62,223 nucleotides of DNA from a virus (IMGVR_UViG_3300014720_000037:1-62223), one strand, 5' to 3'. Shown: positions 5,151 through 59,695, counted from the stretch's first letter. Translations and numbers: made by a program. The notes: generated by a model not told the origin, from the letters alone.

Positions 5151-6773
5151 ATGACACAAACTATAGCTCAGAATCTAATCATACTTAATAATAGTAAGCA
5201 TAGAAAGACTAATTATAATAAACATCCTATTGAAGTATTTAGTGACATTGATGATCAAGTAACAAGTAATAATACTTATATAGATATAATCAATAAAATA
5301 AATAAGTTAGACATTAATTACAATAATACAATTGATGATTTAAACAATCTTATAAGTGCTGCTAGACAGGTATATACAACTCTAAAACAAGAACAGCAGT
5401 TACTTAGTTTAATTGATTTATATACTTACACAATTCCTAATAAGACATCTTTTATTGCACAATTAAATACAATAAACACATTAATAGAAGATTGTAATAA
5501 GATAGTAAACAATATATTAAACAATACTGTTAGTAGAGTATATACATACATTAATCCTTTAATATTAGATGATATTAGCAGCAATGTTAATGCTTTAATA
5601 TCTAAACAATGGTTGACTAATTATTTAATTACACTACCCTTAATACCTAAAATTAGACCAATTAATGCGGCTTTAATATGTGACAGTAGTGGACAAGTAA
5701 AATGGCAACAGGAGTAATAATATGAGTGATATTAGAGGTGAAAGAATAGGCACTGAGGCTATACAATCAATACAAGATATTGATAGTTATATTAGCAATA
5801 ATTACCTACAGATCATTAAAGATAAGATTGAACTGTTAAAAATAAAAAGGGCCCAAATTGAAGATTTAAGACTGTTATATGAATCAATAAATACTACTAA
5901 TAACAGTATTATTAATAATATTAAAAACAGTTCTAAGTACACACAAATTACAACTAATCAAACAACTGCTGAGCCTCTTATTGATGAATTAAACACTATA
6001 CTTAGAAGTCTATTAACAATAATAAACAGTGACATTACTATTGGCAATTTAAACTACAAAGAAGAGTTATATGGTATTGATAAGATATCAATTACAGAAG
6101 GAGAATTTACATCTGTAGAAGGCCCCTCTAATAACAGTCCTAAAACAGCTATTAATAAAACAATATTTAATAAAGAATTAGAGAAGTTAGAAAGAGTACC
6201 AGAACCAACTCAAGGTTTCTTTTACATAGCAACTGATAATAGTGGAAATATTATACTTAAGAGGGCTATATAATGACAGACTTGTTTAATAGAAAGGACC
6301 TAATAGGTGATCAAAGTATAAACACAATAAACAACTTTAATGATTATATTGATTCATTATTAAACCCTTTTAACAACATATTAACAGACCTTATATTAGA
6401 ATTAAATAGTATAAGTATTAATAGACCAGTTCAATATAAAGACTTATTAGTAACAAACTTACAAGTAAAAAATGAACAGCTATTATCTAAGTACAATCTT
6501 ATAAATATTAGTAGTCAAATATCAACAGATGTTGCTACTTATATAGGAACACTGACAACTAGTAAAAACAACTTTAACTCCATATTAAATAGTAAAGCTA
6601 GTCCAACCTTTCCTCTTACAAGACCTATTACAACCACTATATTAGATAATAGTACTAGTTATATAACTAAACAGTATGTAACTAATAATTTAATTAAATA
6701 CACTTTACCTACCCCTGTGCCAAGTACTAAATTATATGTAAATGAATCTGGAACAGGTTACATATGGGCATAG
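5151..6773 (+). CDS. Three adjacent coiled-coil-like hypothetical genes (5151-5717, 5722-6273, 6273-6773), probably virion/tail-associated
   Basis: Tightly coupled ORFs with similar C-terminal motifs (CDSSGQVKW, TDNSGNIIL, VNESGTGYIW), upstream of the endolysin. Confidence 0.5.
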
Positions 6774-36170: not shown

Positions 36171-37082
36171 ATGAATACTAAAAATGCAGGAATATATTCT
36201 ATTACATCTAAAATTAATGGTAAAAGATATATTGGTTCAAGCATTAGAATATCCTATAGATGGAAAGATCATAAAAGAAAATTAAGAAGTAATAAACATC
36301 ATTCTACTCATTTACAAAATCATTATAATAAATACGGAGAAGATGATTTAGTATTTTCTATTGTTGAAATAATAGAAAAAGATAATCTATCTCTTAAACA
36401 ATTTAAAGAATTATTATTAGAACGTGAACAAACTTATTTAGACAATTGGCAGGAATGTCAATTTAACAACTCAAAAACTGCTATATCTAGTTTAGGATGT
36501 AAAAACAAAGACACTAAATATTATGATTATCATAAAAAAGCGAACGTTTATACAACTTGGTATTTAATAGATGGTCATCGTAAATATTTTAGTTCTTATC
36601 TATTAGAACAAGATGCAATAAATCAAGTTAAATATATTAAAACATTAACAGAAAAACAAATAGTTGATTATTACAAAACATGTAAAAACTTTAGATATAA
36701 AAATTCTAAGTTTTATAGTTACATCAAAAAACTTAATTTATATAAAACTTATTATATTGTAAATAATAAAGTTCAACATTTTAGTTGTCATTTTATAGAA
36801 CAAGATGCAATAGATCAAATTAAATATATTAAAACATTAAGCGAATATGAATTACTTATATATCTTAAAGAATGTAGAAACAGACCTTATAATTATAGAA
36901 AAGATATAAAAAAAGATAGAAAAAAGAGAGGTGTAAAGGGTTTTTATTATAATAAAAAAGCTAAGATTTGGTTTATCCAATTTAAAATTAATAACAAATC
37001 AAGAAATTTTGGTTGCTATAAAACAGAAGAAGAAGCTATGAAAAAAGCTAATGAAATCAAATTAGAATTTGGATTATTGTAA
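36171..37082 (+). CDS. Free-standing GIY-YIG homing endonuclease with AP2-like repeats
   Basis: GIYSITSKINGKRYIGSS, HLQNHYNKYGEDDL and GCYKTEEEA. Confidence 0.9.
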   Translation: MNTKNAGIYSITSKINGKRYIGSSIRISYRWKDHKRKLRSNKHHSTHLQNHYNKYGEDDLVFSIVEIIEKDNLSLKQFKELLLEREQTYLDNWQECQFNNSKTAISSLGCKNKDTKYYDYHKKANVYTTWYLIDGHRKYFSSYLLEQDAINQVKYIKTLTEKQIVDYYKTCKNFRYKNSKFYSYIKKLNLYKTYYIVNNKVQHFSCHFIEQDAIDQIKYIKTLSEYELLIYLKECRNRPYNYRKDIKKDRKKRGVKGFYYNKKAKIWFIQFKINNKSRNFGCYKTEEEAMKKANEIKLEFGLL

Positions 37083-37945: not shown

Positions 37946-37997
37946 ATTGTTTAACCTTTGAATGTTGATTTAAATTATATTTACTCAATAGAGTAAG

Positions 37998-38082
37998 TGC
38001 CTGAGAAAGGATTTGAACCTTCACATCTTTTACAAGATAACACATCCTAAGTGTGTTGTGTCTGCCTTTCCACCACTCAGGC
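37998..38082 (-). tRNA. tRNA-Leu(UAG), long variable arm, CCA not encoded
   Basis: Acceptor stem GCCTGAG/CTCAGGC plus A, D-loop GG, anticodon arm ACACA-CTTAGGA-TGTGT and T-loop GGTTCAAATCC. Confidence 0.93.
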
Positions 38083-38267: not shown

Positions 38268-38327
38268 TACAAGATGATTGTGTTATCAGTTAAACGTTGA
38301 TTACATTATTATTTGCTGAATCATCTT
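38268..38327 (-). ncRNA. Solitary eighth CAGCAA hairpin unit downstream of the DUF2828 gene
   Basis: AAGAUGAUU-CAGCAA-insert-AAUCAUCUU-GUA, the same architecture as the array. Confidence 0.8.
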
Positions 38328-38347
38328 TATTTATCTATTATATCAGA

Positions 38348-39907
38348 CTACTTTATAGCACTGCTAACAGCATCATATCTACTAGAATAAACAGCCTCTC
38401 TCATCACATCAACAGCAGTTATAACCTTACTATTAAGTACAGCCTTCATAGTAGAAGGAGAGCAACCACTAACAAGAGCAACGCCTCTATCATCAATGGT
38501 CATAGGAACATTAGAGGCGCTACAAACATTCCAGAAGATAATATTAGGCATAGTATAACCCGCCTTATCATATAACTTCTGCATCTGTTCTAAGTTAGTT
38601 CTCTTATTACTAATACAACATCTATCAAACTGCATATCACTTACAATAATCAAAGAACTAGGCATTTGATCTTGGGGCACCTTACCTTTAACACCAGCAT
38701 CTAATATGGCTTTAATAGCCTTCATTAGATTTGTGTTCTCCATCCTTTGAGTACTTCTAACAACTGTTTGTAGTTTAGTGTATATGTCACCACTACTAGG
38801 TAAAGATACAAGTCTTGGATTACCATCAAAGACAATAAACTTATCTTTCCAGTAATCACTTGTATTCCTTTCAGCAATATATACTGCTAATGATACAGAC
38901 ACATCAATAGGTTTAATGTTTGATGTCTTTCTTTTACCAGTACCATCAGTATAGCTATAAGGACTATACATTGATCCTGACACATCAGCTAATACTAAAC
39001 CATTAAAGTCAGCCCCTTCCATGTAATTAGGTAGAGCCTGCCATTGAGCACTTAGACCTTGTCTCTCAGTATTAGATATCTTCTTCAACCCAGTATAACT
39101 ATTAGTAACAGCATTACTAATGTCATAAGGATATAAGGTGCTAGCATTAATCTTCTTCTCACCTCTACTAACAGCTTCTATGTACTGTTTATATCTATCT
39201 TCATCATGCTTTTGAAAGGCCTTTCTATACATCAACATAGCCTTAGATGGCACATGCTCATAGTTAATATTAGACCAATCACCACTACACATTGCATGTT
39301 CTACAATGTTGATTCTTGTTCTCAATCTAACTAGTAACTGTCTATAGTCTTTCTCACTTAGACCTAAATCCTTAGCAACCTTTCTACCTAGCTCCTTAGT
39401 TCTTTTACTAGAAGCATTAATAGATGGTAGCCATTTACCCAACAGAGATACTGAGTTATCACTATTTAGAGCTAATACATCCTTATCTAATTGAGCCTTA
39501 AACAAGTCAATAACAAGGGGCCACAAGTATGTGTCATGTAGTACTAATATATCATCCCATCTACCATAGAATGGAATCAAGTGTACTAATTTCCTAGCAA
39601 GAGGACTAAGACTAATAGCTAACTCTCTAAACACATGTCTAAATACAGATCTTTCACCTTGACCACCATTACCACTACTATTACTTCTAACATCTCTGCC
39701 ATAGAATAGTATTCTTAAAGCTGTCTCTTCATCCTCATTGAGAGCCATATTAAACAGATGAGTAATACCACTTAAATCATCTCTAGAGGAGCCAACCTTA
39801 CCAAAGAAGTCAACACAACTATTAAGAGTACTTGTATATGCCTTAGCACCATTCCAAGTAGTAGTTGTGTTTAATCCTCTATTCAAACTACTAATAAAAT
39901 CTGTCAT
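38348..39907 (-). CDS. DUF2828 / TROVE(Ro60)-like helical protein with a C-terminal vWA domain
   Basis: RD..GGQGER..FR, YGRWDD, GKWLP, INYEHVPSKAM, LYPYD, DVSGSM, TNL, SDMQFD, FWNV and VSGCS. ATG at 39907 is preferred over TTG at 39919. Confidence 0.85.
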   Translation of the reverse strand: MTDFISSLNRGLNTTTTWNGAKAYTSTLNSCVDFFGKVGSSRDDLSGITHLFNMALNEDEETALRILFYGRDVRSNSSGNGGQGERSVFRHVFRELAISLSPLARKLVHLIPFYGRWDDILVLHDTYLWPLVIDLFKAQLDKDVLALNSDNSVSLLGKWLPSINASSKRTKELGRKVAKDLGLSEKDYRQLLVRLRTRINIVEHAMCSGDWSNINYEHVPSKAMLMYRKAFQKHDEDRYKQYIEAVSRGEKKINASTLYPYDISNAVTNSYTGLKKISNTERQGLSAQWQALPNYMEGADFNGLVLADVSGSMYSPYSYTDGTGKRKTSNIKPIDVSVSLAVYIAERNTSDYWKDKFIVFDGNPRLVSLPSSGDIYTKLQTVVRSTQRMENTNLMKAIKAILDAGVKGKVPQDQMPSSLIIVSDMQFDRCCISNKRTNLEQMQKLYDKAGYTMPNIIFWNVCSASNVPMTIDDRGVALVSGCSPSTMKAVLNSKVITAVDVMREAVYSSRYDAVSSAIK

Positions 39908-39914
39908 ATGTTTG

Positions 39915-40461
39915 TACAAGTTAATTTGTTTTCTTTTACCTTAGAAAATTGTATTAATTGCTGAATTAACTTTTAACAATTAATGTGTTATACAAGATAG
40001 TTACTTATTTTGTCTAAATGCCAAAGGTTAGTTAATAATTTGCTGAACTATCTTAGATTATTTAATTACAAGATGACTTTGTTTTCTTAAGACAATTAAT
40101 GGTAAGAAATATAATAGTTGCTGAGTCATCTTATTAGAGATTTACAAGATACGTCTTTTGCCATTGGCAAGCATTACTAGTGCTTATTTATATTATTGCT
40201 GAAGTATCTTAGATTATTTAATTACAAGATAGTATATTTAACTTATTTTAGCCTGGAGCCAAAGGTTAATTAATTGCTGAACTATCTTTGTTTATTGCAA
40301 GATGATTACTGTTTCTTAGTTTTACCTTTGCAAGAAATATAATAATTGCTGAATCATCTTATGTTTAATATCTACTATTACAAGTTAATTTAACCACCAA
40401 CTGGCTAGCAAGCTGCTATTCAGGAATTGAACCTAATATAAAATTATTGCTGAATTAACTT
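39915..40461 (-). ncRNA. Array of seven hairpin units with invariant CAGCAA (putative Y-RNA-like small RNAs)
   Basis: Units at 39915-39972, 39991-40054, 40067-40132, 40143-40210, 40223-40288, 40296-40360 and 40379-40461. The 9-bp closing stems show compensatory changes and the inserts are variable. Confidence 0.85.
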
Positions 40462-40481
40462 TATCTAATAGTATATACTAA

Positions 40482-41537
40482 CTATGTAGTTTCATCCTTA
40501 CCATGCTTCTTCATAAACTTATTGTTCTTAATTTTAATAAACTTATAACCATTACTAAGAACAACGCCTTCATTTAATGTTTTACCATCAAGAATAGAAT
40601 ATTCATGTTGTGCTAATTGATTTACCAACTCCATAAGATCTAATGAGAAGAGCCCTCTATATAACTCAGGTACAAAGTACAAGTTAGTACTTCTTCTAAG
40701 TACATTCAAATCAATATAAACACCATCAACATAGATAGCATATATATAAACAACTGGCTTATCTAAATCATAGTTAAAACCTTTAATATATGGGATAACT
40801 TCACCAATGATTTGCACAACAGAGCCACTAACATTCTTACCACATAGATTAGACAATAGAGATTTAAATGTGCTATAAGAGTTATCCCAATCAATACATC
40901 CAATAGTATTAACCCAAGCCCTCTTATAAGCATTATCAACGCCTTGTTTAAACACTAAGCCTTGATCCCATAAACCTTTACTACTGATGTACTCCTGACC
41001 ATCTATCCAAATAATGTTTATTTGACTACCATGTAACTTACTAGTAATAGTTACATCTTGGCCCTCTTTAAATCTATCTAGATATACAGATGGATATTTA
41101 CAATCATGTTTGATGTCATGCTTTAACTCTTTATCAAATACTTCAACGGTGTCTTTTAACTCATTAGGAATATCAGGCACATACTTAGTAATGCCTAACA
41201 CATCACTAATATCAACACCAACTTCAAACTCACTAATGTCATACCCCATTTTATTGAGTACTTCATTAGGAATAACAATGCCTTCTGACTCTTGCTCTCT
41301 AAGTACTACAAAGCCAACCCTATCTTTATTTGGCCCTCTAAGATACTTGTTCCATTCCTCTAACATAATAGAGTGAGTTAATACACTGTTCTTAGGAACA
41401 GCTACACCCTTATCACCATTCTTATATGTTCCTTTAGCAACAACATATTGATGATCACCAATGCTTACTAGTTCTAACAGATCAGCATTAGGATGTGGAT
41501 ATACATTTACACGTTCAACGCTTACTTTAAATGACAT
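40482..41537 (-). CDS. ATP-dependent RNA ligase, DRB0094/Rnl5 family
   Basis: HPNADLLEL N-domain, motif I TSKLHGS, GEV, EGVV and KIKN. Confidence 0.85.
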   Translation of the reverse strand: MSFKVSVERVNVYPHPNADLLELVSIGDHQYVVAKGTYKNGDKGVAVPKNSVLTHSIMLEEWNKYLRGPNKDRVGFVVLREQESEGIVIPNEVLNKMGYDISEFEVGVDISDVLGITKYVPDIPNELKDTVEVFDKELKHDIKHDCKYPSVYLDRFKEGQDVTITSKLHGSQINIIWIDGQEYISSKGLWDQGLVFKQGVDNAYKRAWVNTIGCIDWDNSYSTFKSLLSNLCGKNVSGSVVQIIGEVIPYIKGFNYDLDKPVVYIYAIYVDGVYIDLNVLRRSTNLYFVPELYRGLFSLDLMELVNQLAQHEYSILDGKTLNEGVVLSNGYKFIKIKNNKFMKKHGKDETT

Positions 41538-41797
41538 ATTAGTTACTATTTACTATTGTTTAACTTATTCAACAAATCAATATTACCTCTACAGGCTCTA
41601 CGTCTATTATTATGACAATCCCATCTAACAGATACATCATGTTGATATTGTAAGGGTCTACTACTTAACTCATATGTAAGATCAGTATATAAACCCCATA
41701 CAACAGCACAATCACTACAAGGCACCTCTAGCGGTTCTAATACATCATCAGATAAGATAAAGTCAAAGTCATAACTATCACTAGAAGTCATAATGTA

Positions 41798-43645
41798 TTA
41801 CCAACTACTATCACTAGATGATGAAGACGATGACCAGTCACTACTAGAAGATGAGGACCAACTACTATCACTGCTAGAAGAGGATGAATAACCACTACTA
41901 TATCCTCTATTAGAAGAAGATGAGTAGCTGGGTCTTTTATCCTCATTAGTATATGTAATAATAGCAGCATTAAATGAATTGTAATCCTCATTATCAAGGT
42001 GCCTTGTTAGAGTCTGCTTTCTACTACTACTATAGGATGACAGCTTAGCTTTAGCCTCTTTGTACTTCTTAGCATCAACTACAAACTGTTTAACATTGGA
42101 TTTAAGACCTTCTAATGTCTTAGCAGTCTCATAGAATCTATTATCAAGAGGCAATTGTGAGATAGTATTGGTTAAATTATCCCTCTGATTTGTAAGCTTT
42201 GTAGATAGATTAGTAATGCTTAGATCCTTAATAAGTTGATCTCTAAGTTCTTTAGTATTGTTATAGTCCTTATCTTGTTGTTTATAAGAAGTTACAAACA
42301 GTTCTAACTCTTGTTTAATCTTATTAAGAGCATCAATGTCATAGTTATAATCTGTCAAATTACTAGCTTGGCCAGCTAATGAGGAGACATAAGTATTATC
42401 ATCAAAGGAGATAGGATCTGTATAGTATGTATTGTTATTAGTAACAACATATTTATACAAGTCTTTAATAGCTTGTTTAGTTTTAACAAACAAGCTAATC
42501 TTTTCATCTTCTAATGTAATAGTACTATAGAATCTACTATAAACATCCCTTCTAACCTCATATGATTGAGCATCAACAACCTCTTGATATAGTCTATGAA
42601 CAGGAGAGACAGACACATATCTAATACTATTCTCTGGGGCATACAGTTTAGTAGCACCATCTAACAGTTCTTTATATTGTTCAGCCTCATGTTTAAGTTT
42701 ATTTTGTCTATTAATCTCAGCAATAGGATCAGTGCCACTAACAACACTAATATGCTCAAGGAAATTACTAATATAGGATATAGTAGCATCTATATCTCTA
42801 TTAATGTTATCAATAGTAACTACAAAAGAATCCCATGAGGGCTTATTAAACAAAGCCTCCTTAAAAGAGGGCAGTTTAATAGTTAGATACAACTCACTAA
42901 TATTATTAATCGATACTAACAATCTATCACATATAGCCTTAGTCTCACCTGTATAACCATTCAAGTATGTTGATTGTTCAACCAACTTACTATAGTTAGT
43001 GTTGATTGATTCAACTAGATCTTCATACTTGTTATATAGATCTTGTTTATCCTTAAAGTAGTATATAACAGTCTTGTATGATGTGTATATAACAGCTAAC
43101 ATAACTATTATAAACACAATAATAAATAAGCTATTAAAGAAGAAGCTAACACTATTATTAAATGCAATCTTACCTTCAATCTTAGTTCTAATACCCTCAG
43201 CAACTACTGGAATAAAACCTTGTGGATTCTGTGGTAAAAACCTCTTAATATTAGGTCTAACAATGTCACTATCAATCTCTTCTTTAGTGATATATGATCT
43301 AAAATCAGCACCAACATTAGCACTAAATGAGCCCTTACTAGAATCAGTTACAAGCCTATTATAGACAAGAGTTACATAGCTATTACCACTAACATTGCCA
43401 GTGCTAATAAACCTATCATTAATAGTAACTGCCCTCTCATTACTAATGCTGTTTAATGAGTAGAATTGAATGTTTAAACTCTTACTCTTATCACTAACAG
43501 TAGTTAGCTCTTGTTGCAACTTAATATTATCAAAGCCCAACACAGGATCACTCTGAACAACAGCAGGGGCTGCTAATGCAGACTGACCAAACAACAATAG
43601 TGATGATACTGTAGTAATACCAACCAAACTTAACTTTCTAATCAT
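41798..43645 (-). CDS. Secreted/membrane protein (TPM-like N-domain, TM helix, coiled coil, Ser-rich tail)
   Basis: Signal peptide (SALA), TM segment FIIVFIIVMLAVIY and an SSSSDW-repeat tail. Confidence 0.55.
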   Translation of the reverse strand: MIRKLSLVGITTVSSLLLFGQSALAAPAVVQSDPVLGFDNIKLQQELTTVSDKSKSLNIQFYSLNSISNERAVTINDRFISTGNVSGNSYVTLVYNRLVTDSSKGSFSANVGADFRSYITKEEIDSDIVRPNIKRFLPQNPQGFIPVVAEGIRTKIEGKIAFNNSVSFFFNSLFIIVFIIVMLAVIYTSYKTVIYYFKDKQDLYNKYEDLVESINTNYSKLVEQSTYLNGYTGETKAICDRLLVSINNISELYLTIKLPSFKEALFNKPSWDSFVVTIDNINRDIDATISYISNFLEHISVVSGTDPIAEINRQNKLKHEAEQYKELLDGATKLYAPENSIRYVSVSPVHRLYQEVVDAQSYEVRRDVYSRFYSTITLEDEKISLFVKTKQAIKDLYKYVVTNNNTYYTDPISFDDNTYVSSLAGQASNLTDYNYDIDALNKIKQELELFVTSYKQQDKDYNNTKELRDQLIKDLSITNLSTKLTNQRDNLTNTISQLPLDNRFYETAKTLEGLKSNVKQFVVDAKKYKEAKAKLSSYSSSRKQTLTRHLDNEDYNSFNAAIITYTNEDKRPSYSSSSNRGYSSGYSSSSSSDSSWSSSSSSDWSSSSSSSDSSW

Positions 43646-44394: not shown

Positions 44395-45303
44395 ATGAAT
44401 AATAATAGCGGTATATATTCTATTACAAGTAAAACAAATGGTAATAGATATATAGGATCTTCTATATCAATAAATAAAAGATGGAATCAACATAAATTCA
44501 ATCTAAGACTCAACAAACATCATTCTTCATACTTACAAAATCATTTTAATAAATATGGTGAAGATGATTTGATATTTGATATCCTTGAAATAATTGAAAA
44601 ACATGATTTATCTACAAAAGAATTTAGAGTCGTTTTATTAGAAAAAGAGCAGCAATACTTAAATGACTGGAAAAATTGCCAGTTTAATGTAAATAAAAAA
44701 GCAGACTCTTCTTTAGGTTCAAAACATATAGATGCCAATTATTATACATTTTGTCCTAATAGACAAAAATATAGAGTTTTTTATAAAGTAAAAACAAAAA
44801 ATCTAATGTTTGGATGTTTTGATACGGAACAAGATGCAAAAAATCAAGTTGATTATATTAAAACATTAACTGAAGATGAGTTAATAGAGCTACACAAATT
44901 AAATTATAAAGGTAAAACATCAGCAGGAGTTAGAAGTAAAAACGGATGTAAAGGATATAGAAAAAAACTTAATAGTTGGGCTGTTGAATTTACAATACAT
45001 TCTAAACGTATCTACTTAGGATCATATAAAACAGAAGAAGAAGCAAAAGAAAAAGCTGAATATTTTAAAACCTTAAAGCCTGAAGAACTGATAAATTTAT
45101 ATGAATTAAACTATAAAAATAAAAGTTTAATAGGAAAAAGAATGAGCAGATGTAAAGGATATAGTAAAAATAAAAATACTTGGAAGGTTAGATTTATAAT
45201 AAAAGGAAAAGAAAAATACTTTGGTAGTTATAAAACAGAAGAAGAAGCTAAGCAAAAAGCAGAAGAAGTTAAAAAAGAATTAGGAGGTTTATTAAGATTT
45301 TAG
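44395..45303 (+). CDS. Free-standing GIY-YIG homing endonuclease with AP2-like repeats
   Basis: GIYSITSKTNGNRYIGSS and GSYKTEEEA twice. Paralogue of 36171-37082. Confidence 0.9.
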   Translation: MNNNSGIYSITSKTNGNRYIGSSISINKRWNQHKFNLRLNKHHSSYLQNHFNKYGEDDLIFDILEIIEKHDLSTKEFRVVLLEKEQQYLNDWKNCQFNVNKKADSSLGSKHIDANYYTFCPNRQKYRVFYKVKTKNLMFGCFDTEQDAKNQVDYIKTLTEDELIELHKLNYKGKTSAGVRSKNGCKGYRKKLNSWAVEFTIHSKRIYLGSYKTEEEAKEKAEYFKTLKPEELINLYELNYKNKSLIGKRMSRCKGYSKNKNTWKVRFIIKGKEKYFGSYKTEEEAKQKAEEVKKELGGLLRF

Positions 45304-57608: not shown

Positions 57609-59695
57609 ATAGTTACTCCTTTACTAAGCCTTTAACTAATAAAGTAGTATTAAGCATTAATTTCTCTCAAATTGATTTAAAACTAAAGCATTTCTTTTCT
57701 CATAAAGGTTGCCCCTTTCATCTCTTCTAATACATAGTCTTAACATATAAGTTTGCACACCAGTATTAGAATCAAAGTTGCTCTTTAATAGACCATTCTT
57801 AAGAGGTTTATTATCCTCATTATATGTGACAAAGCACAAGTTAGTAGATTGAATATACCAATTGTTAAAGTGTGGCGTACCCACTAAAAAGAGCAAACAT
57901 TCTACTTGCTCTTCACCATTATTAATAGCTTCCTCCTCAGTTGTTAGAAGAAGTTTAGCCAGCTCATATTGTTGAAGACTAAGAGTAAATGGAAACTTAC
58001 CATTTACAACTTCAGACCAAGTTTTATAAAGATAAACGCCTCTTGCATTATTACTAGTACTAACAATTAGCTTTTGCTTATCTAGGTCTTTTTGAGAATA
58101 TGTAATATAAGACCAATATGGAGCCACATTATTATTACTCAAGAACTCTTCAAACTCCTTAAATGAGTAGCAAGAATAGTGATGATTACTTTCATCCTCT
58201 AAGGCCTCTTGATATGTCTGATTAGGACCAACCGTTGTATATACTTGCTCATACATAATAGTAATATTTCTACCATAGTTAATAATAAGATCTCTCTTTG
58301 GTAGGTTTGATACACCTTCAAACAACAACTCAGTATTATTTAATACCTTAATTTTTCTAAGATCAGACATGATTACTCTCTAAATAAATGATAAATACAC
58401 AACAAAAAAGCTATTAAAAGCTTCTATCTAAATCCAAATATGCCGCCTCTTTTAAAGAGACTATAGGGACAACTTTAGACCTAAGTTTAAGTCTAAAAGG
58501 ACCAATTCTTCTTTTTCTTGTTTTTAATCTAATAGATATCATCGTATAACTAGTTATATGTTTGAATATGACTTGCAGATAATCTTGAGTAGCCCATCTT
58601 ATTTAATCTTTTAATAAGACTGGAAGAATAAGTAAGAAGACTCTCCCTATCAAAGCGTGAATGACATGTCTCATAATTAGCAGTGTTATATCTTCTTCTG
58701 TCATTTACCATATCCTCAAAGCTTATACCAGTCACTTGAGAAGGAATTGGTACAATATCCTTATAAGAATTTTCTCTCATACTTTATACACTATTTAATT
58801 GTTATTGCTTGTCTTGTCTGTTTATTTACAATGTAATACTCTTTACTATACTCATCAAAGAACGCCATAAAGTCAGTTAACTCTATGATCTGTCTTTTAT
58901 AGTTGTCAGTATAACTTTTAATTACATCTTGTTTAGACAACAAATCTTTCCACGTAGGAACAATATAAAATCTACTAATCTTATAACCAGTACATTCACT
59001 ATATTGCCCCATCTTCTTTCTATATTTAAAGCCAATTCTAGCACTATAAAGAGCCTCATATAATGAGGTGCCAACTAAGAACATCTCCAAATCATTGAAG
59101 AATTTAACCTTATATAGTCTCTTCTTACCATCTGGTTCAGGATCTTTTGATAATAATGATCCACTTACAACGCTACTCATAATACATTACCCATACTTCA
59201 TCATAATAAAAAAACAGCTCAGTTCTAACTTCCTATAATATAAAGTTTAGATAGATCATATACAAATAATATAAGGATTAAAATAGGGTCCATCAAATTA
59301 ATAATTAAATCAAAGAACATTAATACTCTAACAATAAAAAGTGTTTGTATAGCATATTGGTTTAGGCTATATTAATAAAGTAATCAGATGGCAGTATGCT
59401 TAAGAGCTTGTTTAACCACCTGATTACAAAGATTATAAGCAAACTAAACAAGCCCCATATTACTACTGTTAATAACAATATATAGATGGGGCTTGTTTAA
59501 TTTATTACTACTAATCTAATAACTTAGCTAACTATTTACTAGTTAGAAGTTCAACCCACTGTTGACCACACATTATCTTATGTGCCCGTCTAAGTGATAA
59601 AAAAGGGCCATCTATTAGATAGATTTGGCCTCTTATATCTTTCTTTAATATGTAATATCTCTTACTAGTTAAAAATAAAAACATATAAGTTTATA

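Follow-up and report, generated by a model that had tools for sequence, protein, structure and literature searches.

Ro60 and its Y RNAs constitute a classic RNA-surveillance particle. What is known of this particle in bacteria and phages comes from a small number of cases, in each of which the protein is annotated as TROVE, and the locus described here raises the question of whether a protein of another family, DUF2828, is also accompanied by small RNAs of its own. The locus is located on a viral fragment of 62,223 nucleotides (nt), IMGVR_UViG_3300014720_000037:1-62223, which was analyzed at its full length and is termed the window (62 kb; G+C 29.8%; CheckV completeness estimate 28%). When read on the minus strand from 41537 to 37997, an RNA ligase gene (40482..41537), seven tandem RNA units, the DUF2828 gene (38348..39904), an eighth unit and a gene for tRNA-Leu with anticodon UAG (37997..38082) follow one another. 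Sequence comparison indicates that the units form a family that accompanies DUF2828 genes and not a local oddity. The locus probably specifies a Ro60/Y-RNA-like particle, in which RNAs with a novel handle, encoded in arrays of unusual size, would be bound by a protein of a new family, and which would act in tRNA or RNA repair or surveillance. This reading is supported by the predicted fold of the protein and by the conserved linkage between gene and RNAs.

The RNA units of the window

A script scan located 16 copies of CAGCAA on the minus strand of the window, eight of which belong to units of 58-83 nt with a common plan: a 9-nt stem strand, CAGCAA, a variable insert, the complementary 9-nt strand and a terminal GUA (seven units) or GCA (one unit). 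All eight were recovered in the arrangement of the original prediction, which had been made from the sequence alone and had placed seven units between the ligase and DUF2828 genes and the eighth after the latter. The closing stem is paired at 9/9 positions in six units and at 8/9 in units 3 and 4. The stem variants AAGUUAAUU, AAGAUGAUU, AAGAUAGUU, AAGAUGACU and AAGAUACUU differ between units by changes that are compensated on the opposite strand, and the stems and the two single-mismatch units that had been named as signs of conserved pairing were all present. When the other 27 CAGCAA copies of the window were subjected to a lax test, in which G-U pairs and any partner within 130 nt were allowed, six attained 8/9 pairs and none attained 9/9.

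Unit 1 (40379..40461, on the minus strand as are all of the units) is 83 nt in length with stem AAGUUAAUU (9/9 pairs) and a GUA end, and was the one unit missed by the covariance model R1 that is described below. Its insert includes a T-arm-like hairpin (UUAGG-UUCAAUU-CCUGA) and a D-arm-like hairpin (AGCC-AGUUGGU-GGUU), as well as a small closed hairpin (AGCA-GCU-UGCU) located between them. The minimum free energy fold of unit 1 retains the closing stem and both hairpins, and the unit was scored as T-arm-like. Unit 2 (40296..40360; 65 nt; stem AAGAUGAUU, 9/9) possesses a UUUCU/AGAAA hairpin and the GCA end, and matches R1 at 23.7 bits (E 0.003). Unit 3 (40223..40288; 66 nt; stem AAGAUAGUU, 8/9; 32.1 bits, E 2.8e-5) carries a AACCUUUGGC..AAAAUAAGU insert in common with unit 6 (39991..40054; 64 nt; stem AAGAUAGUU, 9/9; 29.8 bits, E 1e-4), and unit 4 (40143..40210; 68 nt; stem AAGAUACUU, 8/9; 27.3 bits, E 4.2e-4) has two short G+C hairpins inside the insert. 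The hairpin of unit 2 recurs as UUUCUUA/UAAGAAA in unit 5 (40067..40132; 66 nt; stem AAGAUGACU, 9/9; 31.4 bits, E 4.2e-5) and as UUUUCU/AGAAAA in unit 7 (39915..39972; 58 nt; stem AAGUUAAUU; 33.0 bits, E 1.7e-5). Unit 8 (38268..38327; 60 nt; stem AAGAUGAUU, 9/9; 30.1 bits, E 8.7e-5) is situated 21 nt past the DUF2828 stop codon. The kinship of the inserts in units 3 and 6 and in units 2, 5 and 7, along with the linker GUAAUUAAAUAAUCU that is present as an exact repeat between units, agrees with what had been read from the array at the outset.

Folding of the units as single sequences predicted the closing stems with energies that were not significant relative to shuffles (z -0.23 to -2.24), and the case for function thus rests on comparison with other loci. 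The linkers between the units are 7-20 nt in length and no convincing promoter precedes each unit; the units are therefore probably made as one transcript. The Rfam search that had been suggested for the array returned no matching family: at gathering score tRNA-Leu was the sole match in the window, and neither ARAGORN nor the Rfam tRNA model called any of the units.

The 3′ end of unit 7 is positioned 10 nt ahead of the ATG of the DUF2828 gene. In eight relatives (loci L008, L013, L017, L019, L020, L021, L028 and L035) the last unit stops 11-13 nt short of the gene, directly next to GGAGA. These positions suggest that unit 7 may double as a leader element with an added autoregulatory role. 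The last unit of the cyanophage-like relatives has the stem AAGUUGAU or AAGUUAAU and lies at about 2930-2985 (2567-2615 in L013); window unit 7 has a stem as in these units, but lacks the GGAGA.

Conservation of the units at DUF2828 loci

The comparison comprised 164 stretches with a DUF2828 homolog (4 + 80 viral-contig loci, 80 genome-contig loci and the window), with protein identities to the window of 34-54%. CAGCAA was counted in successive 200-nt bins at the 157 loci whose flanks were long enough. On the strand of the gene, the first three bins upstream contained 141, 80 and 52 copies and the first three downstream 72, 52 and 41, compared with ~10 in distant bins and 3, 3 and 3 in the upstream bins of the opposite strand. 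At least eight contiguous closing pairs accompanied 232 of 436 near-gene copies, but 67 of 436 after the downstream 204 nt were shuffled; the corresponding values elsewhere were 54 of 182 distant copies and 62 of 401 copies on the opposite strand. Alignment A3 was assembled from 35 units of other loci, without any window sequence. The stems in A3 were 94.3% paired and double-sided changes occurred in all nine pairs. Compensated cells numbered 92 compared to 28.4 in shuffles, none of 500 shuffles reached 92, and registers that were slid out of place were 34-45% paired. As the rows were selected for having stems, the A3 result measures covariation and not the existence of the units.

From A3 the covariance model R1 was constructed, again without any sequence of the window. 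The model recovered seven of the eight window units (E 1.7e-5 to 3e-3), with unit 1 missed probably because its insert is long. The sole other match in the 62 kb (59449-59497; E 0.08) is a plain hairpin without CAGCAA and was rejected as a unit. Beyond the window, R1 matched 49 of 81 viral loci (99 matches) and 64 of 80 bacterial loci (150 matches), amounting to 249 matches in 113 of 161 DUF2828 loci with every match on the strand of the gene. In five whole bacterial genomes (2.4-5.8 Mb) searched at E≤0.01, all six matches, distributed among four genomes, fell inside DUF2828 loci. The co-occurrence of units with DUF2828 genes elsewhere, for which the original prediction had called as a check, was thus observed. 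Matches adjoin the gene in Listeria phage LP-064, Shigella phage Sf13, Mycobacterium phage LeBron and Synechococcus phage B23, which represent four host phyla. With this model, RNA genes that have been overlooked in well-studied phages can be annotated by the hundred.

The consensus of the 150 bacterial matches is A-AAG-RYR-C-NN-A-CAGCAA ... NN-G-YRY-CUU-G-U/A. There are 95 distinct 5′ stems among these matches, and the successive positions C, A, G, C, A and A of the motif (A/U/G)CAGCAA are conserved in 150, 150, 150, 149, 147 and 140 of the 150 rows. When R1 was applied to four canonical TROVE genes (4 of 61 genomes sampled had the gene) no match was obtained, which is a weak control because these loci also gave no match to Rfam YrlA at gathering score. 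No description of the RNA family, whether of the handle, the array or the permuted forms described below, was found in the literature or in Rfam 15, in a search that lay outside Burroughs & Aravind 2016 and the supplements of Chen 2014. The RNA family therefore appears to be undescribed. The presumed novelty of the system stood for the RNAs and not for the protein, homologs of which are already labeled 'Ro-like RNA binding protein' in phage annotations.

tRNA-like forms of the units

The units occur in three topologies. The majority are free-standing with short hairpin inserts, and some enclose tRNA-like parts as exemplified by window unit 1. Overall, a T-arm-like hairpin was detected in 33 of 288 unique near-gene units (28 loci) compared with 0.1 in shuffles. 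The third topology is represented by Rfam tRNA matches of 113-120 nt that possess an acceptor stem, D arm and T arm, none of which is called by ARAGORN; at the position of the anticodon arm there is a capped hairpin followed by (N)ACAGCAA. Examples are L003 1002-1116 and 1729-1843, and L020 4559-4671 and 4733-4852, with more in L017, L021 and L035; the RNA at L169 4863-4972, which is annotated as 'tRNA-Undet', is of this kind as well. The third topology is a circular permutation of the enclosed tRNA-like form. Such permutation would be expected if a fixed three-dimensional arrangement of handle and tRNA-like body were under selection. The order of T and D arms is described as differing also between YrlA and the Deinococcus Y RNA (Chen 2014, PMC4201824).

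The units share with phage tRNA arrays both their setting, as in relatives the gene and units sit in arrays of up to 25 tRNA genes with a transfer-messenger RNA (tmRNA) gene in two loci, and the T-arm- and D-arm-like hairpins or whole tRNA-like body that some of them contain. In contrast with tRNAs, most units have no cloverleaf and the free-standing units are uncalled by ARAGORN and the Rfam tRNA model. Furthermore, the CAGCAA handle defines the units whereas ordinary tRNAs are without it. As a separate observation, the 3.5-kb viral contig L003 contains a direct duplication of ~727 nt (about 440-1290 and 1290-2020) that spans the RNA array. Short 'GAAAGAGGAAACCCCUUGCC' repeats form an additional insert in one of the two copies, and the duplication may be true or an assembly artefact.

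The DUF2828/DUF7788 protein

The DUF2828 gene encodes a 518-amino acid protein with a helical N-terminal part together with a von Willebrand factor A (vWA) domain. A Pfam scan of the protein at E≤0.01 matched DUF2828 (1e-40), DUF7788 (4e-38) and nothing else. Alignment A1, which comprises 13 sequences, shows no variation at residues D307, S309, S311, T391 and D423, and these are presumably the MIDAS (metal ion-dependent adhesion site) positions of the vWA motif DxSxS...T...D. A structure model was generated from the 13-sequence alignment with a predicted local distance difference test (pLDDT) score of 75.4 and a predicted template modeling (pTM) score of 0.56. When this model was compared with the PDB using Foldseek, the 12 best rows listed were all Ro60/TROVE structures (E 6.7e-8 to 2.3e-5; 527-593 columns) with both domains covered, followed by vWA/MIDAS domains at E 1e-3 and worse. 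Using VIA-align, Ro60 of Thermus phage phiLo (9kop) aligned with a Z score of 16.3 and a root-mean-square deviation (rmsd) of 5.9 over 411 aligned positions, encompassing model residues 28-514. The Z score for 9l5y was 15.2, those for frog, human and Deinococcus Ro60 were 11.1-12.6, and chains consisting only of a vWA domain scored 10.9 or less. Thus, the predicted fold of the DUF2828 protein, with helical repeats and a vWA domain, is closest to Ro60 in this model, as the original prediction had anticipated.

The protein family is very large, with at least 5585 proteins at E≤1e-5 among 8000 candidates scored. Of 50,697 phage records, 710 contain homologs; Felix O1-like, Listeria, Staphylococcus, Campylobacter, Mycobacterium and cyanophage genomes are among them. 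The phage annotations that use the Ro-like label are paralleled by PHROG 850, which is named 'RNA-binding protein', and the DUF2828 clusters in Protein Atlas derive from viruses and bacteria only. A second, very large protein family is now linked to putative RNA partners of its own. These partners have a simple searchable handle, are arranged in arrays and adopt three topologies, two of which have tRNA-like parts in addition to the handle.

Some jumbo phages are described as having a 'ROT/TROVE' protein whose partner is tRNA-like (Iyer et al. 2021), and for that module the same source cites Burroughs & Aravind 2016 (NAR 44:8525), where DUF2828 proteins may already be grouped with Ro. The Ro-like protein gp53 of phage LeBron is reported to be moderately toxic when overproduced in M. 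smegmatis (PMC13148394). Among fused or long homologs, protein P0121 (1148 amino acids) has DUF2828 and DUF7788 accompanied by helicase domains of the RecQ type (DEAD, Helicase_C, RecQ_Zn_bind and HRDC); no long eukaryotic form turned up in the search for such homologs.

Comparison with Ro60 and Y RNAs

The protein resembles Ro60 (Rsr) in combining a helical-repeat part with a vWA domain that has a MIDAS-type motif, and it is the Ro60 of phage phiLo that forms the top structural match. That phage is described as encoding Ro60 with the RNAs Yrl1 and Yrl2 (PMC12135203). As with Ro60 and Y RNAs, the protein gene and the genes for the small RNAs are immediate neighbors on one strand. The RNAs resemble Y RNAs in having a conserved helix that is made by the 5′ end together with the 3′ end and is adjacent to a variable module, and at least some of them contain a putative tRNA-like module as reported for YrlA (Chen 2014, PMC4201824). 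In bacterial loci, RtcB is encoded in the same gene row as in Salmonella rsr-yrlBA-rtcBA. There also are differences. The handle here consists of a perfect helix with single-stranded (N)CAGCAA, unlike the bulged helix of Y RNA, and arrays are larger with eight units in the window compared to the two to four Y RNAs described (Chen 2014, PMC4201824). Moreover, circularly permuted tRNA-embedded forms exist and the upstream regulator in bacteria is a WYL/WCX protein, both unlike the Ro60/Y RNA system. YrlA matches of 25-29 bits (gathering score 69) in the relatives fall in the tRNA-array regions, several of them on tRNAs called by ARAGORN.

The handle shared by the eight RNAs is a 9-bp helix of the two ends of the RNA, starting with AAG and ending with CUU-G, with single-stranded (N)CAGCAA directly after the 5′ strand. 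The array would be transcribed with or next to the gene and then cut into single RNAs, each of which would dock on one protein molecule via the handle as Y RNAs dock on Ro60 by their terminal helix. The variable modules may be adaptors or tRNA mimics that link the protein to enzymes of tRNA handling, RNA repair or RNA decay, which could be the adjacent RNA ligase here and RtcB, PNKP or CCA-adding enzymes elsewhere. The likely benefit for the phage would be that tRNAs and structured RNAs are kept working during infection and that RNAs cut by host nucleases are repaired or cleared. The unit that abuts the start codon may additionally let the protein control its own translation. Binding of the handle, presentation of the inserts as cargoes by the protein and teamwork with this particular ligase had all been proposed at the outset and are retained by inference.

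Alternative explanations

A number of observations weigh against a Ro60-like particle. Concerning the protein, the model is of moderate confidence at the pLDDT and pTM values given above, and the Foldseek template modeling (TM) scores to Ro60 are 0.34-0.53 with rmsd of 9-12 Å. At E≤0.01 the Pfam TROVE family (PF05731) is unmatched by the protein, a sequence profile search of the PDB at E≤10 returned no Ro60, and hhalign comparison of A1 with four TROVE proteins was weak (probability 25%, E 7.7e-4, 57 N-terminal columns). As sequence methods miss the link, the protein is called Ro60-like in fold and not a member of Pfam TROVE. Concerning the RNAs, 48 of the 161 loci are without an R1 match at E 0.01, as is one complete genome with a DUF2828 gene (locus L160). 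The stems contain G-U pairs no more commonly than A-C mismatches (23 versus 29 cells), so that the usual G-U signature of RNA is absent. In the window array and in the relatives, the units match neither Y_RNA (RF00019) nor YrlA (RF02553) in Rfam, and they are without the CGAA motif that accompanies the bulged helix in canonical Y RNA as described (PMC12135203). Finally, there is no RNA ligase among the 122 nearest open reading frames (ORFs) scanned at viral loci, and the ligase adjacency of the window thus is not general in phages.

The units might instead be cis-acting elements of an operon and not free partner RNAs, serving as processing punctuation between tRNA-like transcripts, as stabilizing hairpins or as a translational leader for DUF2828. 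The probable single transcript, with its short linkers and no convincing promoter for each unit, the arrest of unit 7 shortly before the ATG, the abutment of the last unit on the GGAGA ribosome-binding site in the eight relatives, and the interspersion of units with tRNA genes in relatives fit this explanation. However, units also are found downstream of the gene (unit 8 and 103 of 317 near-gene units) and number up to seven R1 matches per bacterial locus, neither of which a leader needs. Sites bound by proteins typically consist of an invariant single-stranded motif, here of 6-7 nt, next to a helix that covaries, and the motif is retained even in the circularly permuted tRNA-like chimeras. 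A purely cis-acting role consequently is judged unlikely, and is compatible with a Ro60/Y-RNA-like particle for the last unit only.

Two further explanations dispense with a particle. The CAGCAA hairpin could be a short intron-like or mobile insertion in tRNA genes that is cut and ligated out by the neighboring RtcB or Rnl enzyme with DUF2828 as cofactor, the free-standing units being degenerate or excised copies. The frequency of RNA ligases as neighbors is in keeping with this idea, as are the 113-120-nt Rfam tRNA matches that are not ARAGORN tRNAs and hold an ACAGCAA insert of ~40 nt at the anticodon-arm position. Yet removal of the insert leaves no evident normal anticodon loop in the examples that were read, most units stand free with a closing helix of their own and no tRNA body, and no splicing endonuclease was seen among the scanned neighbors, which makes the explanation very improbable. 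Alternatively, the repeats could act as DNA in the form of protein-binding sites, targets for recombination or homing endonucleases, or palindromes resembling repetitive extragenic palindromic (REP) sequences. Homing-endonuclease genes are indeed nearby (36171-37082 and 44395-45303), HNH genes are located upstream in the cyanophage-like relatives, and the lack of a G-U excess over A-C in the stems would suit a DNA element. In contrast, the 249 R1 matches and the seven in the window are all on the strand of the gene, the conserved CAGCAA is asymmetric and outside the palindrome, and the stem sequence is free to change while pairing is kept, as the diversity of 5′ stems attests. Only at the RNA level would there be a sense in the tRNA chimeras and in modules that resemble T and D arms, and action as DNA is scarcely credible.

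Neighboring genes and RNA repair

The 351-amino acid product of the RNA ligase gene, which is directly upstream of the RNA array, has an N-terminal OB-fold-like part and a nucleotidyltransferase part. It matched Pfam RNA_ligase (PF09414) at 28.6 bits, above the curated cut-off of 27, and PHROG 968 'RNA ligase' at 8e-33 over residues 7-347; the match to the PHA02142 OB-fold was under the cut-off of 27 at 24.4 bits. By these model matches the protein is a member of the ATP-dependent RNA ligase family. The Pfam and PHROG matches to both flanking genes agree with the identities that had been assigned at first reading.

At viral loci, 122 of 149 nearest-ORF references were scanned, most of the 27 omitted being near-duplicate loci. 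RNA-repair-type neighbors were confined in this set to one PNKP and two enzymes of the CCA/poly(A)-polymerase type. In Listeria phage LP-064 an RtcB-like ligase is encoded 1.3 kb downstream of the DUF2828 gene, and the LeBron genome is reported to encode an RNA ligase and a polynucleotide kinase elsewhere (PMC13148394). In the relatives nearest to the window (51-54% identity) the gene lies inside tRNA arrays, with four loci having 25, 17, 12 and 7 tRNAs, the third of these along with one tmRNA, and in Shigella phage Sf13 the gene likewise is within a tRNA array. Phage tmRNA genes of the permuted, cyanobacterial type are present in such arrays in L021 (2505-2798; tag peptide ANKIVAFSRQTALV) and in L017 (about 5595-5854).

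For bacterial loci, 105 of 145 nearest-ORF references from 70 loci were scanned, and most of the 40 omitted were short ORFs. RtcB was a nearest neighbor in 27 of the 70 loci, mostly directly downstream, and a T4 Rnl1-type ligase was encoded at one locus. The predicted link to RNA-repair ligases therefore held for RtcB in bacteria and in LP-064, and was not seen among the 122 nearest ORFs scanned at viral loci. In three bacterial loci a protein of ~300 amino acids upstream of the array matches WYL or WCX domains, and WCX is fused to RtcB in two ORF calls. The bacterial row of regulator, RNA array, DUF2828 and RtcB mirrors, by analogy, the rtcR-rsr-yrlBA-rtcBA row of Salmonella, in which RtcR is the regulator of the operon. 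The Salmonella arrangement is established (Chen 2014; Hughes 2020). A second, independent RNA-repair row composed of a regulator, RNAs, a Ro-like protein and RtcB can thereby be set beside rsr-yrlA-rtcB. From this genomic context, RNA repair or surveillance centered on tRNAs is the best-supported function for the DUF2828 system.

Expression in a Listeria phage relative

In Listeria phage CKA15, the three regions with the highest transcription are described as unannotated, with their own sigma-A-like promoters, and as situated no more than 2 kb upstream of CKA15_055 (PMC12282133). The best HHpred match of CKA15_055 is Rsr, and the authors speculated in 2025 that the abundant upstream RNAs are Y RNAs (PMC12282133). 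The protein was detected in purified virions by 20 peptides with 57% coverage; according to the same description, tRNA genes precede its gene and a transcriptional-regulator gene follows it (PMC12282133). In LP-064, three units at 2661-2917 follow a promoter-like site just upstream of the DUF2828 gene, of which two were detected by R1 and the third was identified by eye. Here too tRNA genes are upstream, and an XRE-family helix-turn-helix gene is directly downstream. Orthology of CKA15_055 with the LP-064 DUF2828 gene is inferred from this shared gene order, that of CKA15 being taken from its description. The units thereby offer a concrete explanation for the abundant unannotated RNAs of the Listeria phage.

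Likeness to Dictyostelium Class I RNA

The Dictyostelium Class I RNA (RF01414) was the sole Rfam model that aligned with the units at full length, in register and on the right strand. The scores were 18.3 and 17.0 bits for two window units, 15.3 bits in L003, and 23.1 (E 0.048) and 19.1 bits for the two R1-detected units of LP-064, which were the top matches of that stretch. All of these values are far under the gathering score of 41.5, and no RF01414 match was obtained at E≤5 in eight whole loci. Class I RNAs are described as 42-65 nt in length, starting with AAG, having a short stem that joins the ends and ending with CUGU, with an 11-nt motif beside the 5′ strand that reads CCUUACAGCAA in the Rfam consensus (Kjellin et al. 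2021). The same source reports the RNAs as absent outside Dictyostelia, from searches of selected eukaryotes and Myxococcus (Kjellin et al. 2021).

Class I RNAs and the units are alike in a length of ~60 nt, a terminal helix, a 5′ AAG, a motif ending ACAGCAA after the 5′ strand and a variable A/U-rich remainder. The 3′ end is mostly CUUGU(A) in the units and CUGU both in the Listeria phage units and in Class I RNA. Four of the five near-invariant positions described for the 11-nt motif correspond to the invariant C, C, A and A of CAGCAA, and only the last 6-7 of the 11 positions agree with the units. The Class I stem is 6 bp compared to 9 bp here, the genes are eukaryotic and dispersed with a Dictyostelium upstream sequence element (DUSE) promoter ~60 nt upstream, and the known direct binder is the RNA recognition motif (RRM) protein CIBP/Rnp1A. 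The likeness may be due to chance or convergence. A rather doubtful, bolder reading is that Class I RNAs are a eukaryotic branch of the DUF2828-associated family, in which a DUF2828/vWA Ro-like protein, possibly acquired along with the RNA from a phage, bacterium or giant virus, would dock at the stem and ..ACAGCAA. Room for this reading is provided by the pull-down with the Class I RNA DdR-21, in which four proteins are reported including DDB_G0281243 of unknown function (bioRxiv 10.1101/2020.04.05.026054), as well as by DUF2828 proteins being reported as mimivirus-like (bioRxiv 10.1101/033464) and listed in the literature as occurring in plants. If it reflects homology, the link would supply both a protein partner and an origin for the enigmatic Dictyostelium RNAs.

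Other features of the window

No obvious Shine-Dalgarno sequence was apparent at the three minus-strand gene starts inspected (41537, 41791 and 39904). A sigma-70-like promoter-like site, TTGACA-17-TATATT with 11/12 matches, is located on the minus strand at 38176-38148 upstream of the tRNA-Leu gene, which itself is downstream of unit 8. A 12-bp hairpin followed by a T run sits between this site and tRNA-Leu (38176-38089, minus strand). Upstream of the ligase gene, an 81-amino acid ORF at 41546-41791 separates it from a 615-amino acid ORF (41798-43645, minus strand) that has no Pfam or PHROG match and possesses a C-terminal serine-rich repeat in which runs of S are broken by D and W. The region is bracketed on the opposite strand by the homing-endonuclease-like genes at 36171-37082 and 44395-45303 (both plus strand), which are paralogous and match PHROG 7168 and the HNH family PHROG 99.

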